Shown here: piece by piece, positions 1,679 through 7,109 of the stretch
Layout of the letters: every line of letters begins with the position of its first letter
How positions within the stretch are numbered: position 1 is the first letter of the stretch
Assembly: GCA_965218795.1 (NCBI GenBank)
Contig: OZ244653.1
Location: 992,001 to 1,056,000 of the forward strand
Length of the DNA stretch: 64,000 nt
Direction of reading: 5' to 3'
DNA from: a bacterium
GTDB taxonomy: Bacteria > UBA8248 > JACPRG01 > G963555815
Program-made: the position numbers and the translations under genes
Notes under the pieces: generated by a model
Told to the model about the DNA's origin: nothing
What the model saw: only the letters and a program-made list of their open reading frames with translations
Databases searched by the model: none

Positions 1679-1885
1679 ATGCGGATAGGGACAGTGAAGT
1701 GGTTCAATGAATCAAAAGGATATGGGTTCATCAGCCAGGAGGAGGGACCGGACGTCTTCGTCCATTATTCCTCCATCACGATGGACGGGTTCAAAACTCT
1801 TGCAGAAGGGGATATGGTCAATTTCGAGGTAGAGGAAGGCCCGAAAGGCCTGAAGGCCATTAACGTATCGCGCGCACCCGAATGA
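1679..1885 (+). CDS. Cold-shock protein (CspA family)
   Basis: GTVKWFN..KGYGFI..DVFVHYS RNP motifs; GGAGG upstream. Confidence 0.97.
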
Positions 1886-1973
1886 GTTCTTCACGGGACG
1901 GGAGAAATCCCCCCCGTACACGGTGACGGCGTCCATTTTTCGAAGGCAGTCCACACCTGACGATCCCTGCGTC

Positions 1974-2004
1974 AGGCGGGGGGGGGCTCGCCTTCTTTTT
2001 TTTT
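1974..2004 (+). terminator. Probable intrinsic terminator after csp
   Basis: aggcggg/ctcgcct hairpin followed by a long T run. Confidence 0.55.
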
Positions 2005-2073
2005 ACGGACGTGATCGTCACAAATCAAGACCCTTGGTCCATTTGACAAGCCCACCGAAAAAACTCTGACTCC

Positions 2074-3414
2074 TCAAAGAACGCCTTCCGGCCAACCGCT
2101 TGCAGCAGAATGGTCAGCCGTGTCGGCTCCCTCAACCACCATCCCGGGGGTAATCGTGAATCGCAGGGCCTGATGGGCCAAGCGGAGCGCGCTCTCGGTC
2201 TCCCCGGGTGTGGCGCCCCGGGAGAAGATGAATCCGAGATAACTATCCCCTTCCGGAAGCGGCACGAGGATCTGACGAGGCTTGGCCGTGATGACCACGT
2301 CCTCCACCCCGTTCAACCGGCGCGCCTCATCGACACCCTCGACCCGCTGGAGGATGCCGCCCTGCGGAATCGGGATCATCATGACTCCCGCCGCCGCGTG
2401 CGGCATGGCCTTCCAATCGATGGACCAGCCGAGGGAGTGCCGAAGCACGATTTCCTCCAGAGACATCCCGCAGGCGGTCCGCAGGACCCTGGAACACAGG
2501 CCGCCAATGGGACGGGAGGCGATTTCCAGTACGTACACCCCTCCCTCGTTCACCCGGGCTTCGGCATGGACGGGGCCATGAAATAATCCAAGCGCCCTGC
2601 AGGCCTCCTCAACGGAGCGTTCAACAGCCGCCTGGGCCGACCGCTCAAGACGCGAGGGGGTCACATACAGGGTTTCTTCGAAGAATGGGCCGTCCAGGGG
2701 ATCGGGCTTGTCGAACAACGCCAGCGGCCTCAGTCGCCCGTCATCCATCAATCCCTCAAGGGAGATTTCCGCTCCTTCAATGAAGTCCTCGACGAGGATG
2801 GTTTCGTCCGCCGGATCCCTTCTGGCGCGAATCTCGGGCGCCTCCAGAATCTTTCTGATGCGATGGAACGCCAGCTCGAATGAACGGCAATCGTCCGCCC
2901 GGATGACGCCCCGGCTCGCACCCAGTCCCAAGGGTTTCAGAACGCATGGATAGCTCTGCTTTTTTGAATGCGATTCCGGATCGGTCCAGCCGGGTACCGG
3001 AGTGAACTTCGGGACGGGGAGCCCCGCCTCAAGGAACGCACGCCTCGACAACAGTTTGTTCCTCGCGGCCGCGGCCGCGTTCGGCGGATGGTGTCGGAGC
3101 CCCAACGCTTGGGCGGCCTGAGCGGCAACCACCGTTGGTCTGTCGCCGATGGGTATGACGGCGTCTATCGGTCTGTCGCGGGATGCGCTCAGAATCGCGC
3201 TCACGCATTGGTCCAGCTCTTCGAACCGCAAGGCGAGAGCGCCGTCGAGCCATGGGTCGTTGAGTACGTGACAACGGTCCGTCCCGATCAGGACATCCAG
3301 CCCCAGGGCGCTTGCCGCGTCCAGGAAATCCCGGGCCTGGTAGCCGGTGGTGGCATACAGGAGAAGAACCCGCGGGCGCCGCGAGCCCTCTGAGATGGAT
3401 GGGCGGGGGTTCAT
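2074..3414 (-). CDS. ATP-grasp domain protein (amino-acid-ligase-like)
   Basis: ARNKLLSR..AGLPVP, YPCVLKP..GASRGVI, ILVEDFIEGAEISLEG, HAEAR..VLEIASRPIGG; ATG 3414 sits 1 nt after the read-through stop of the radical SAM gene. Confidence 0.9.
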   Translation of the reverse strand: MNPRPSISEGSRRPRVLLLYATTGYQARDFLDAASALGLDVLIGTDRCHVLNDPWLDGALALRFEELDQCVSAILSASRDRPIDAVIPIGDRPTVVAAQAAQALGLRHHPPNAAAAARNKLLSRRAFLEAGLPVPKFTPVPGWTDPESHSKKQSYPCVLKPLGLGASRGVIRADDCRSFELAFHRIRKILEAPEIRARRDPADETILVEDFIEGAEISLEGLMDDGRLRPLALFDKPDPLDGPFFEETLYVTPSRLERSAQAAVERSVEEACRALGLFHGPVHAEARVNEGGVYVLEIASRPIGGLCSRVLRTACGMSLEEIVLRHSLGWSIDWKAMPHAAAGVMMIPIPQGGILQRVEGVDEARRLNGVEDVVITAKPRQILVPLPEGDSYLGFIFSRGATPGETESALRLAHQALRFTITPGMVVEGADTADHSAASGWPEGVL

Positions 3415-3415
3415 A

Positions 3416-4816
3416 TCAAATCGGAGCCAACTGCTCCTCCAGAGGCTCCGCTCAGCAGTACCAAGGCTCGGTGAGGAAAGGAATTGCGGCCGGAGAGGGT
3501 AAAAGCGGGAGGTCGGGGAGATACTGAACCTCGATCCCTTCGGCCCGATGAGCCGCTCTCCAGACCCGTGCAAAGACTTCGCGGCGGCTCAGGCCCGCTT
3601 CACCGCCCTTTTGGACAATGTCCAGGACTTCGCGGTGAAGCGCATCCACGCGGGCGTCCTCGTGCCGCCAAGTCCAGCTCAGCAGTGAAGGATCGAATCC
3701 TTCCAGGGCTTCCCTGACCTCACCGAGTTCCAGCAGCCGGGAACCCGCGGGGATCAGGAGCCGAATCGCCAGCTGAACGGGAGAAACATGCCCCACCAGG
3801 TCCAACTCGATCAGCAGAGAGAGAAGGTCTCGATAACCCTTCAACGTGGTCCAGGGAGTGAAAGTCACGAAGGTCGGATTCAGATTCATCCCGATGTCCC
3901 TGAACATCCCGACGGCGCGGACAAAATCGTCGCGTGTGTGCCCCTTGTCGAAAATCTCCAACACCCTGTCGTCAATGGCCTCGACCGCACTGGTCACAAA
4001 GCCGCAGCCGGTATCCCGCAAGACGGTCAACTGATCCGCGTGCTTCAGAAGGTGCTCCACTTTGATCGTGACGTCGTAGGTCAAGTCCGGATGTGCGGCA
4101 TGCAGCTCCCGAACCAGGGAGAGAGCGTGCCGAATCCCATTGAAAAAATCCGGATCTCCGAATGTGATGTGCCGCGCTCCATGGTCCACCTGCCTCCGGA
4201 TGTCTTCCAGAACGATGTCCCGCTGGACCACCCGAAAGGCCCCCTGATACACGGGAACGACCGGGCAGTGCCGGCATAAGTGCTTGCAGCCCCGGCTGGC
4301 CTCCGTGTACCCGACGGTGCGCGTTTGGCCGTTTCCCAAGTCCAGTCCGGCATAGGAGACCAGGTCCGGCAGATCGCTTCGGTCGGGAACCTTGAACTGG
4401 AGACGCTCCATGCCGATCCGGGTATTCCCGGGAGTGTTGCCGCTCTGTCCCGAACCGAGTTGACGGGCGAGCGCGGCGAGGTCCTTCTCGAACTCACCGC
4501 CCAGAAGGGTCTGTACGCCCAGGCCGCGAAGGTAATCGGCATTGACCGTGGCATAGAGACCGTAAAAGCAGATGTGCGCATTCGGGTTCAGCGACTGGAC
4601 ACGCCCCAGCACGCTGACCGCGATCCTCGTGGCCGTGTGCATGGGGACGTAAAAAGCGACCAGATCGGCCGCTCGAACCGGCTCTTCGAGCAACGGGAGA
4701 ACGGACAGATCCTGGCAGGTGACGTCCACGCCCTCCCGCCGGAGCCACCCGGCCGGAGAAGCCAGCCCGAACGGCTGCCTGCCAAGGTCATAGGTGGAGA
4801 TCAATACGACCTTCAT
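3416..4816 (-). CDS. CUAEP-tail radical SAM selenoprotein with N-terminal B12-binding-like domain
   Basis: CxxxCxxC (CKHLCRHC). In-frame TGA 3452-3454 reads on as EPWYC-U-AEPLEEQLAPI*; hairpin cggagcc...ggctccg directly after the UGA. Confidence 0.9.
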
Positions 4817-4939
4817 GGTCTTCCTCGATGCGCCCGCTGGCCGGCTCAAGGTTTCGGGCTCCGTGGAATCCCCGGCGGGAAAGTTCTCGAAATCCGGATA
4901 CTCAATCTCGGCATCCGCAGCGAATCGCGATGGGGCGGT

Positions 4940-5221
4940 TCACCCTTTTGACTGGGGGGGGATATACCCCTCAGGCATCGCGGCGCCTTCGCCGAAGAAA
5001 TACTCATCGACCGATTTTTCGAATATTTCATCGGTTGAATCATCCATGAGGTTCAACCGGTATTCGTTCACGACCATCTTGAAATACTCGAGAAACATCT
5101 CCCAGCCTTCCGCGGACACGTTCTCGAAGACCTTTTGTCCCAGCTCTCCGGGAACGGGGGCTTCCGAAAGACCTGGGGCCTCCCGTTCCAACTTAACACA
5201 ATGGACCATCCGTATCGACAT
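4940..5221 (-). CDS. yggX: Fe(II)-trafficking / oxidative damage protection protein
   Basis: RMVHCVKLEREAPGL..PVPGELGQKVFENVSAEGW..VNEYRLNL..PEGYIPP. Confidence 0.9.
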   Translation of the reverse strand: MSIRMVHCVKLEREAPGLSEAPVPGELGQKVFENVSAEGWEMFLEYFKMVVNEYRLNLMDDSTDEIFEKSVDEYFFGEGAAMPEGYIPPQSKG

Positions 5222-5614
5222 GACGTCGCCTCCTGTCAAAGGACACGAAAACTGTTGCGTCCCCACCCATGATCTATGTATAACGATGTTCCCCGTCGTT
5301 CAAGGAAGCCTCCGGCAGCCTATGCCCCGCGCGGCGCCGGGGCGACGATGGAAAACCATTTTGACCCCGCCCCTTAAAAATTATAACATTTGGCTTGGGT
5401 ATACGTACCGGCGTACTCCCACCCAATAAACGCTCATGCAGGTTTTGTCGCTCGGCCGTGGGTCATGGAAATTCGGGGGAGTCTCGCAGGGCCACCCTGC
5501 CGTACGGCTCTCTTGCGTGACAGACGCGGCCGATATGCATTCGGTTCATTTTCCCAAGTTGCTGCCCGGGGCCTGTCAAGTCAACCGGGCATCGGGGTCT
5601 GGAGGATTCCCGTC

Positions 5615-6613
5615 ATGGCGAAGAAGAACCCCTCCACCATTGGCCGGACCATCCGGATTCGGGGAAATCTGGAGGGGGATGAAGACCTCGAATTCCTAGG
5701 GCGGATTGAAGGTGACCTGGACCTCAACGCCCACCACCTGTTGATAGGCGAAGGGGCCCAGGTGGACGCCAATATCCGGGGACGCGCCATCACAGTGGAG
5801 GGACAGGTCTCCGGGACGATCGAGCTGAGCGAGTTGTTGTGCGTCCAGGCGACCGGCTCCGTTTCAGGCGATGCCCATACCCCGCGGCTCCTGACGGAGG
5901 ACGGAGCCCGTCTTAACGGCCGCTTTGTCGTCGGGGCTTCGATGGACGGCGCGGGCCAGTGGATTCCGGACTTTGACCGCCTTCGCCGGCTCGTGCAATC
6001 TGAACTCCTCGGGGTGACCGATCAACATCTGGATTTTTCATCCAAGAGCCCGGACTGGGCGAGGTGGAGCATTCGGCGACAGGTGAGTCACATGGCCAAC
6101 AGCGTCTACTTTTGGCTCGTTGGCCGGTGGAAGGACGTTCTATGGGACAGAGTGGAGCCCGACCCGGAACTCGTCGAGATTGCCTTGGCCGATCACGGCC
6201 ATGACCGAATGCTCGACCCGTCCAGGTATCGGGACGTCCAGACGCTGCTCACAATGCTCAATCGATCGTACGATTTGATATATGAAGTGGCGGGCCGGGA
6301 AAGCGTCCAGTCCATCAGTGAGAAGAAGCTGACGCTCCATCTCGGCCCGGATGCCAGGGTGGGCGCCTCCGAGGAGAACGCGCATCAACTCTGGGAACGG
6401 TTCGGTCCGCTCCATGAGGGGGGCATCGTTCGGGACCCGCCGGACTCTTTTGCATGGACCTTCACGCTCGAGGCTACGCTTCGGCATCTCTATTACGAAC
6501 AACTCTCACACCTTCGTACCATCCATCGGCTGAAAAAGAAGCAGGGGCTTCCCTCTGTTGCACGGGTCCCCCGGGAGGGCTACCTCCAGTTCGACGGCTT
6601 CTGGAATGACTAG
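5615..6613 (+). CDS. Bactofilin domain fused to DinB-like domain
   Basis: N-terminal beta-helix repeats (TIGRTIRIRGNLEGDEDLEFLGRIEGDL...); C-terminal WSIRRQVSHM and LRHLYYEQLSH; GGAGG RBS before ATG 5615. Confidence 0.75.
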   Translation: MAKKNPSTIGRTIRIRGNLEGDEDLEFLGRIEGDLDLNAHHLLIGEGAQVDANIRGRAITVEGQVSGTIELSELLCVQATGSVSGDAHTPRLLTEDGARLNGRFVVGASMDGAGQWIPDFDRLRRLVQSELLGVTDQHLDFSSKSPDWARWSIRRQVSHMANSVYFWLVGRWKDVLWDRVEPDPELVEIALADHGHDRMLDPSRYRDVQTLLTMLNRSYDLIYEVAGRESVQSISEKKLTLHLGPDARVGASEENAHQLWERFGPLHEGGIVRDPPDSFAWTFTLEATLRHLYYEQLSHLRTIHRLKKKQGLPSVARVPREGYLQFDGFWND

Positions 6614-7109
6614 GGACTGTTAACGCTAGCGCAGGGCATCGACGATGAGCGCGAACGTCAGGGCCGTTCGAGCATCCGCGGCAACCAGATGAATCTTGGT
6701 GGTCCACCCGCCCCGGGACTGGCCGATGGACTGGGGGCCGTTTTTTGCAGCGCGCCCGTTCCGTCGGGATGGACCTTGACGAGGGTGCTGTCCAGCGACA
6801 CCGCCTCGAGCTGGATGCGCATGATCCGTTCCCGCTGCAGCTGCTCGAAGACCCGGTCGAGCACCCCGTTCCTGGACCAGCGGTTCATCCGGGTGTAGAT
6901 GGTGTGCCAGTTGCCGAACCGGGTCGGCAGCCCCCGCCACTTGCAGCCATGCTCGGCGACGTACAGGATGGCGTTGAGCACTTGCAGGTTCGACACGCTG
7001 ACGTTGCCGCGTTGCACCGGCAGGGAGGGCGCAATGCGTTCGTACTGAGCTTGGGTGATCTCCATCCGCAAAGGATAACATAACCCCACCCATTAGTGCT
7101 AACAGGCCC
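6613..7109 (-). mobile_element. IS5-family element, internally deleted copy
   Basis: Transposase N-part (GCKWRGLPTRFGNWHTIY..SLDST); imperfect IRs gggactgttaacgcta / tagtgctaacaggccc; flanking TA; lacks ~320 bp present in the 40142 copy. Confidence 0.9.

Follow-up and report, generated by a model that had tools for sequence, protein, structure and literature searches.

A radical SAM selenoprotein of the CUAEP/CCAEP-tail family in a probable three-gene operon with a YggX-type iron carrier and an amino-acid-ligase-type ATP-grasp enzyme

A window of 64,000 nucleotides from a bacterial genome (GTDB lineage UBA8248; JACPRG01; G963555815), comprising positions 992,001 to 1,056,000 of contig OZ244653.1 in assembly GCA_965218795.1, carries on its minus strand what can be described with high confidence as a three-gene operon: a gene resembling yggX, followed by a gene for a radical S-adenosylmethionine (SAM) selenoprotein and then by a gene for an ATP-grasp enzyme of the L-amino-acid ligase (LAL) type, with the UGA at codon 455 of the second gene being read as selenocysteine (Sec) by way of a downstream hairpin and the genome’s own SelA, SelB, SelC and SelD. 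The original prediction for this locus, made from the sequence alone, had described the radical SAM and ATP-grasp genes as a pair, and had overlooked the YggX-type gene directly upstream. The Sec reading of the radical SAM protein’s family (the ‘CUAEP/CCAEP-tail’ family, named after its C-terminal motif) is already on record; what is new here is the three-gene operon, the comparative evidence for a hairpin acting as a Sec insertion sequence (SECIS), and a rule by which a small iron (Fe) or iron-sulphur (Fe-S) carrier precedes the radical SAM gene. No published account of that rule was found in the literature searched, nor any of the LAL-type ATP-grasp and DUF169 context of the family.

The CUAEP/CCAEP family is common, and most of the members examined are selenoproteins; no member has been studied. 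Its nearest characterised relative, ArsL, makes carbon-arsenic bonds via an unusual cleavage of SAM, and the chemistry of the three-gene operon is now directly testable. Members with a natural Cys-Cys pair lend themselves to expression in hosts that lack Sec machinery; knowledge that the real C-terminus includes Cys-Sec-AEP helps study in vitro; and a dedicated Fe/Fe-S carrier probably must be supplied for turnover.

An in-frame UGA read as selenocysteine

Sec insertion at UGA455 is very likely, judging by the reading frame, its conservation among relatives, the RNA that follows the codon and the Sec machinery of the genome. The radical SAM frame begins with an ATG at 4816, runs through ...TEPWYC (Cys454, 3457-3455) to a TGA at 3454-3452, continues for 11 codons (GCG GAG CCT CTG GAG GAG CAG TTG GCT CCG ATT, encoding AEPLEEQLAPI) and ends at a second TGA (3418-3416), leaving one base (3415) before the ATG of the ATP-grasp gene. 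The original prediction had proposed exactly this read-through, and all of its coordinates hold.

Relatives of the radical SAM protein were collected as at least 573 confirmed matches (one genome per species, 185,579 species), and the locus counts below are drawn from the best 80 of these, short contigs included. Codon 455 is TGA in 62 of the 80 and TGC or TGT in 17, while the remaining sequence reaches the end of its contig just after C-TGA-AE; AEP comes next after codon 455 in all relatives. Of 125 distinct family sequences (the window’s own included as TGA), 93 have TGA and 32 have Cys at position 455, with Ala456 following in 123, Glu457 in 125 and Pro458 in 125. The expectation that the TGA would align with cysteine in front of a conserved AEP tail was thus borne out.

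The machinery for Sec insertion, the presence of which had been put forward as a check, was found complete: selA (565.8 bits) and selB (386.7 bits) adjoin each other, selD scores 319.1 bits, all three lying above their cut-offs, and a tRNA-Sec with anticodon tca is encoded as well. The selD gene (C1:5147448-5148413) itself encodes a selenoprotein, with a TGA at the active site (...VKAGG-TGA-GSKLG...) and a GGUCC-UGA-GGACC hairpin that begins 15 nt past the UGA, a distance similar to that of the hairpin in the radical SAM gene.

That hairpin is tied to the TGA forms of the gene. At 17-33 nt past the UGA, five or more consecutive pairs can be formed at 50 of 62 TGA loci (the window not being among them) versus 2 of 17 Cys loci, even though the encoded peptide motif does not differ between the two groups; the mean fold energy is -12.95 kcal/mol for the TGA forms versus -8.82 kcal/mol for the Cys forms (one-sided Mann-Whitney p = 1.8e-5, uncorrected for kinship). 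The stems vary on both sides between lineages (GGAGC/GCUCC, GGGACC/GGUCCC, GAGACC/GGUCUC, CCGGCC/GGCCGG and others) and fall into two registers, GGAGC/GCUCC being found with EEQ[LV]AP and GGGACC/GGUCCC with [RG]DQLVP, while the loop, AGUU(G)/AGGU(G), is constant. Because two stem registers exist, RNAalifold applied to 63 TGA-form tails retrieves 3 pairs only (-0.15 kcal/mol). The claim that a hairpin follows the UGA therefore stood in general and fell in its particulars: the longer structure that had been named, at 3450-3422, is no more stable than expected (z = -0.82, with 38 of 200 shuffles at least as stable) and, being unable to form in relatives of the RDQLVP type, cannot be the conserved element.

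It is extremely unlikely that the TGA is instead a real stop, with a protein ending at ...EPWYC and an apparent tail that arises incidentally from an RNA element or from coupled translation with the next gene. Such a reading could draw on the RefSeq-type record of the Thermomicrobium roseum homologue, which ends at the TGA (gene callers cut CUAEP-family proteins at this codon), on the failure of the window’s minimum free energy (MFE) hairpin to outperform shuffles, and on the Rfam scan of the whole window, which returned 0 matches at gathering thresholds. It is opposed by the replacement of TGA with Cys in 17 of 80 relatives that carry the same AEP tail in frame, by the invariance of Glu457 and Pro458, by retention of the tail at loci without a downstream ATP-grasp gene, and by the full Sec machinery in the genome. 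Thermomicrobium roseum DSM 5159, which encodes the homologue on plasmid NC_011961.1 (locus L177), is a cultured carrier of the Sec form; beside its radical SAM gene lie genes for an aminotransferase and an MFS transporter rather than for a ligase.

The radical SAM protein and its relatives

With the TGA read through, the radical SAM protein is a full-length, regular member of NF040546, ‘CUAEP/CCAEP-tail radical SAM (seleno)protein’: at 619.1 bits it clears the cut-off of 500, and its residues 3-464 cover model positions 1-467 of 468. The CxxxCxxC motif, the C-terminal Cys-Sec-Ala-Glu-Pro and the alternation of Sec and Cys are all shared with that family, and no difference from it was seen. The family name that the original prediction had offered was correct. 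Haft (2022) lists this family as an uncharacterised CU-motif protein (bioRxiv 10.1101/2022.07.06.499078); the protein described here is accordingly a further member of a kind already named and uncharacterised. Its Radical_SAM domain (Pfam PF04055) scores 47.4 bits (cut-off 29.5), and a match to the B12-binding domain falls below threshold.

Beyond the three cluster cysteines, the only conserved cysteine positions are Cys271 (124 of 125 sequences), Cys454 and Sec/Cys455 (125 of 125 each); Cys83 is kept in 105 of 125. An AlphaFold2 model built from 33 sequences has a mean predicted local distance difference test score (pLDDT) of 88.2 and a predicted template modelling score of 0.88. The closest solved folds (AprD4, TsrM, MgmA, OxsB and MiaB) share a layout in which a Rossmann-like domain precedes the radical SAM core. 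A sequence search of the PDB gave 9ccb only, as a weak match (E = 1.7e-5); the set searched includes no structure of ArsL. The radical SAM proteins of family f4 of the same phylum (examined at L180 and L181, from genomes G013 and G022) are approximately 42% identical to that of the window, while those of Acidobacteriota (L018-L095) are 56-65% identical.

Among characterised enzymes, ArsL is supported by these sequence comparisons as the nearest relative, as the original prediction had suggested. The ArsL model, NF040542, is the second-best match to the window’s protein (285.9 bits over residues 4-401), and its cut-off of 450 is missed, which excludes the protein from ArsL itself; identity to an ArsL-family protein with an RCCLKC tail from a Priestia plasmid is 35% over 417 alignment columns. 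Two published accounts describe ArsL as cleaving SAM to methylthioadenosine and a 3-amino-3-carboxypropyl fragment, and as attaching the latter to an As(III) that is bound by three cysteines in the RCCLKC tail (10.1101/2024.02.01.577332; 10.64898/2026.04.29.721666); the latter also describes formation of an Fe-C bond at the unique iron of the cluster (10.64898/2026.04.29.721666). The two proteins are alike in the N-terminal Rossmann-like domain, the layout of the radical SAM core and the CxxxCxxC motif, as well as in a vicinal C-terminal Cys pair, MAFFT placing the CC of RCCLKC on Cys454/Sec455. They differ in that the ArsL tail (CCxxC) offers three ligands whereas that of the window’s protein (C-U/C-A-E-P, here WYCUAEPLEEQLAPI) offers two, and does so after approximately 50 extra residues; furthermore, the Priestia protein has Asn and Val at the columns of Cys83 and Cys271. 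Their genomic contexts also differ: no arsM, arsQ or arsR lies near the window’s radical SAM gene, where an Fe/Fe-S carrier gene is found upstream instead. The Priestia locus (L178; Priestia aryabhattai plasmid NZ_CP064098.1, 95226-108470) also encodes an aquaporin, an ArsR-family regulator, a phosphate transporter and an ATP-grasp protein that is 24% identical to that of the window; the proximity of ATP-grasp and ArsL-like genes may be something that recurs.

Other CU-motif selenoproteins, among them HgcA, SAO-locus proteins and some MerT proteins, have been listed together with a proposal that the Cys-Sec pair contacts a heavy-metal atom (10.1101/2022.07.06.499078). Their folds are unrelated to that of the radical SAM protein, and the dipeptide is all that they have in common with it.

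The iron carrier and the ligase

The first gene of the operon (Table 1) encodes a YggX-type Fe(2+)-trafficking protein, as its matches to Pfam PF04362 (Iron_traffic; 106.1 bits, cut-off 27) and NCBIfam NF003817 (‘oxidative damage protection protein’; 107.4 bits, cut-off 74) indicate. Its start at ATG 5221 was assigned from relatives at two other loci (L016 and L017), and a GTG at 5266, further upstream, is also open. A tblastn search with this query found a single copy in the genome.

The third gene is supported by its architecture as an LAL-type ATP-grasp enzyme, and the earlier proposal that it ligates amino acids accords with its domain set: ATP-grasp_4 (102 bits), LAL_C2 (55.8) and ATPgrasp_N (33.9) all lie above their cut-offs. 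Among solved structures, the L-amino acid ligase BL00235 (3VOT) comes closest, at E = 7e-39, with the alanine-anticapsin ligase BacD next (7e-15), and both share these three domains; against the BacD model itself, the protein scores 54 bits, with a cut-off of 850. No NCBIfam model was matched above its cut-off, and a protein-cluster search returned generic ATP-grasp/LAL_C2 clusters only. Cys48 and Cys307 are invariant within the subfamily. A complex prediction for the ATP-grasp and YggX proteins (84-row alignments each, without controls) returned no verdict, with a score of 0.00 against a mark of 0.32, and counts neither for nor against an interaction.

An ATP-grasp gene is found near the radical SAM gene at 49 of the 80 radical SAM loci; in the reverse survey, of the 80 best ATP-grasp loci, a radical SAM gene is found at 58 and yggX at 64. 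Among 51 genomes of the window’s own phylum, a relative of the ligase (E <= 1e-40) is present in 46. In two of these genomes, ATP-grasp matches beside the radical SAM gene (G001, C24:31105-32397; G002, C4:164759-166045) were reported with one internal TGA; the match may run into the stop of the radical SAM gene, or there may be a second recoding site.

The window’s genome holds a second ATP-grasp paralogue (C1:3857118-3860087; L096, 5118-8087), which is 48% identical, has the same LAL domain set and lies between a NifU-domain gene and a gene with an NAD-binding oxidoreductase domain, with no radical SAM gene nearby. That locus has the appearance of a parallel pairing of a ligase with an Fe-S carrier. 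In a tree of 108 ATP-grasp sequences (FastTree, SH-like support), 6 of 6 Nfu-linked ligases fall into one clade with this paralogue (support 99).

Table 1. Features of the operon (window coordinates)
Feature	Position	Strand	Remarks
yggX-like gene, first of the operon	4940..5221	-	93 codons plus stop; PF04362, NF003817
Radical SAM selenoprotein gene, CUAEP/CCAEP-tail family	3416..4816	-	466 residues, Sec455; stop TGA 3418-3416; NF040546
CxxxCxxC motif (Cys177/Cys181/Cys184), for the SAM-cleaving [4Fe-4S] cluster	4265..4288	-	all three Cys in 125/125
Cys271 codon, family-specific core cysteine, candidate third ligand	4004..4006	-	Cys in 124/125; putative ligand
Cys454-Sec455 dipeptide (TGC TGA)	3452..3457	-	Cys454 in 125/125
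Longer alternative hairpin CGGAGCC...GGCTCCG, same 3' arm	3422..3450	-	MFE fold of the region, -17.8 kcal/mol
Family-conserved hairpin GGAGC-AGUUG-GCUCC, candidate SECIS core	3423..3437	-	5 pairs, loop of 5; 18-32 nt after the U of the UGA
ATP-grasp ligase gene, L-amino-acid-ligase architecture	2074..3414	-	446 residues; ATG 3414-3412

A carrier gene as the constant neighbour

Across the loci surveyed, an Fe/Fe-S carrier is the most constant neighbour of the radical SAM family, and one of three unrelated carrier types precedes the CUAEP-tail gene as a rule. The phylum of the window provides the clearest instance. There, the radical SAM protein is found above cut-off in 48 of 51 genomes (two more have fragments and one has none); 47 of the 48 have exactly one in-frame TGA and the other is cut before the tail. 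A small carrier gene lies upstream in 49 of the 50 genomes that have the radical SAM gene, YggX in 7 and an A-type carrier in 42. In each of the 7 genomes of family f1 (the window’s among them), YggX directly precedes the radical SAM gene. YggX is missing altogether from family f4 (42 genomes); in 42 of 42, an A-type carrier (PF01521; 69.5 bits in L180) lies upstream on the same strand, at approximately 100-200 bp in 38 genomes and at approximately 1 kb in four genomes of one genus, as judged by comparing the coordinates of the two genes by hand.

The third type was seen in the wider sample, in which YggX is present at 41 of the 80 radical SAM loci and a NifU-domain gene at 7: at five loci from other phyla (L025, L030, L049, L050 and L083), an NfuA-like gene, in which an A-type-carrier domain directly precedes a NifU domain, is found just upstream of the radical SAM gene. 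The sampled loci are mostly from Acidobacteriota, so the linkage counts are not independent and are inflated by shared synteny. Several gene orders were seen, however (yggX-rSAM-ligase, rSAM-ligase-yggX, and rSAM-ligase with a convergent yggX, where rSAM denotes the radical SAM gene), and this variation speaks for something beyond inherited synteny. The identities to family f4 and Acidobacteriota given above raise the possibility that the yggX-rSAM-ligase cassette has passed from one phylum to another.

A DUF169 gene (PF02596) with conserved cysteines lies beside the radical SAM gene at 13 of the 80 loci (L022, L023, L029, L033-L036, L038, L048, L050, L061, L063 and L089), 7 of which have neither an ATP-grasp nor a carrier gene. 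The only DUF169 match in the window’s genome lies elsewhere (C1:4881700-4882296).

A possible mechanism and its alternatives

The explanation that we favour overall, while holding it somewhat short of an even chance, is that the operon couples a Sec-containing radical SAM enzyme having ArsL-like chemistry to a carrier and a ligase. SAM would be cleaved at the CxxxCxxC [4Fe-4S] cluster, as in ArsL, and the SAM-derived carbon fragment (3-amino-3-carboxypropyl in ArsL) would be joined to a ‘soft’ atom, either a metalloid or a chalcogen. That atom would be held by Cys454-Sec455 of the flexible tail together with Cys271 of the core, these three residues standing in for the three As(III)-binding cysteines of the ArsL tail. 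If the chemistry works at the iron site of the cluster, or consumes it, the resulting loss of iron would call for a dedicated Fe/Fe-S donor, a part taken by YggX here and, in other lineages, by an A-type carrier or an NfuA-like protein. Where present, the ATP-grasp enzyme would then ligate the resulting amino acid to a second one, giving a dipeptide. Both the metalloid substrate and the peptide-like product of the original prediction are still conjecture, and the three parts taken jointly (soft-atom chemistry, carrier-restored iron and a ligase step) make up a proposal by analogy that is to be held more guardedly.

The suggested role of the carrier would resemble that of NfuA, which is described as regenerating the consumed auxiliary cluster of lipoyl synthase (PMC9585516). 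The likeness is that of a radical SAM enzyme with a dedicated Fe-S carrier; the pairing is genomic here and biochemical there. Homology between lipoyl synthase and the window’s protein is confined to the radical SAM core, no auxiliary-cluster Cys triad is evident in the latter, and the carrier is NfuA or NFU1 for lipoyl synthase, whereas in the family studied here the range of carriers extends to YggX and to plain A-type ones.

An extended version is distinctly unlikely: that the family is a widespread ArsL-like selenoenzyme forming carbon-heteroatom bonds, in which 3-amino-3-carboxypropyl passes from SAM to some non-arsenic soft atom (such as Se, S, Te or Sb) on Cys271/Cys454/Sec455, at a cost in iron that each lineage makes good with a private Fe/Fe-S donor, and with a dipeptide as product where a ligase is present. 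Were that version true, it would add a second natural family of radical-SAM carbon-metalloid or carbon-chalcogen chemistry, serving a core function in Acidobacteriota and in the window’s phylum.

A number of observations weigh against ArsL-like chemistry in this operon. We know of no activity for any member of the CUAEP/CCAEP family. Sequence cannot distinguish 3-amino-3-carboxypropyl from 5'-deoxyadenosyl cleavage of SAM, and identity to the ArsL family is approximately 35% only. The tail that is supposed to hold the substrate atom is modelled poorly (pLDDT of approximately 57 for residues 451-460, dropping under 50 for 460-466). Neither the operon nor its flanks contain any arsenic, metalloid or transporter gene, in agreement with the original observation that no transporter was evident, and no ArsM was found in the genome above cut-off (best match 56.9 bits versus 263). 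The linkage to the ligase is patchy: the association of the two genes that had been predicted is evident in both locus surveys given above but not in the window’s own phylum, where the ATP-grasp gene adjoins the radical SAM gene in 5 of 51 genomes (G000, G001, G002, G003 and G006). At 19 of the 80 radical SAM loci there is no ATP-grasp, YggX, NifU or DUF169 gene, and ten partnerless loci have no neighbour family in common, their neighbours including a GFO/IDH/MocA protein, a methyltransferase, two integrases, two arginases, a glutamate synthase, a molybdopterin oxidoreductase, one open reading frame (ORF) without a family and one weak bpMoxR match. The carrier genes could merely mature an ordinary cluster. 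Finally, the near-universal presence of the radical SAM protein in the phylum (48 of 51) fits housekeeping better than a specialised metabolite.

That last observation, together with the rank of Fe/Fe-S carriers as the most constant neighbours, lends itself to a different explanation, which we consider rather unlikely: that the three genes have no part in metalloid chemistry and serve the protection or repair of Fe-S clusters and thiol homeostasis. The radical SAM protein and the ligase might, for example, build a low-molecular-weight amino acid or dipeptide bearing a thiol or selenol, with its S or Se drawn from a cluster or from the tail, and this compound would work with YggX, Nfu or A-type carriers. 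Raised levels of YggX offset the loss of glutathione in Salmonella, and ATP-grasp and YggX genes adjoin each other at loci where no radical SAM gene is seen (L105, L107, L109, L110 and L114 among them); the second ATP-grasp paralogue beside its NifU-domain gene, and the Nfu-linked ligases of the same clade, would fit equally. Nevertheless, such a module has no characterised member and no such metabolite is known, the counts on which it draws are the same synteny-inflated ones, and in family f4 the ATP-grasp gene is far from the radical SAM gene.

It is quite unlikely, in our estimate, that the protein functions as a canonical radical SAM enzyme acting on an organic substrate through 5'-deoxyadenosyl chemistry, with its Cys-Sec tail serving as a redox or hydrogen-atom-donating arm that resolves the substrate radical. 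The C-terminal Cys-Sec of mammalian thioredoxin reductase, which shuttles by way of a selenenylsulfide, provides a model for such an arm, and the canonical CxxxCxxC motif, the fold of the kind seen in enzymes with a B12 domain plus a radical SAM core, the flexible tail of low model confidence and the invariant vicinal Cys-Sec/Cys-Cys pair are all compatible with it; however, ArsL uses its C-terminal cysteines to bind the substrate atom and not for redox chemistry, and the constant Fe/Fe-S carrier partner would be left unexplained. The reading that the radical SAM protein and/or the ATP-grasp enzyme modify a protein or peptide (YggX, its analogues or an unseen peptide) would account for the small protein that is always encoded beside the radical SAM gene in the phylum survey, and has models in Dph2, the other known 3-amino-3-carboxypropyl-radical enzyme, which transfers that group to a histidine of a protein substrate, and in ATP-grasp enzymes of the RimK/LysX type, which extend a C-terminus. 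We regard it as very unlikely: the small partner comes from three unrelated families and so presents no shared target residue, the C-terminal residue of YggX is not conserved, the ATP-grasp architecture is that of free-amino-acid ligases (LAL_C2), and no precursor-like ORF was seen at the locus, as the original prediction had also noted.

Flanking genes and transcripts

The genes to either side of the operon look unrelated to it. Downstream lies a gene for a tRNA pseudouridine synthase; upstream is a divergent gene with a bactofilin domain (5390-6613, plus strand), which encodes 407 residues and matches that domain with 73 bits, with a long remainder that has no Pfam match. Scanning positions 1800-5500 for promoters and terminators gave nothing of use, and the operon showed no promoter-like site. 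At >=99% identity, parts of the operon are matched by short contigs that come from two metatranscriptome libraries and from two others whose RNA type is a guess; such libraries may contain DNA, which makes these matches weak and no proof of transcription. The contig matches are at 3282-3476 (across the UGA, the tail, the stop and the start of the ATP-grasp gene), 4330-4536 and 4659-4869 for X17, at 4833-5068 for X18 and at 3760-4007 for X19. The metatranscriptome libraries that match the operon (within 3282-5068) are labelled ‘sponge metagenome’. Beyond the bactofilin-domain gene, at 6626-7093 on the minus strand, a pair of short ORFs that overlap each other resembles, by eye, part of a transposase.

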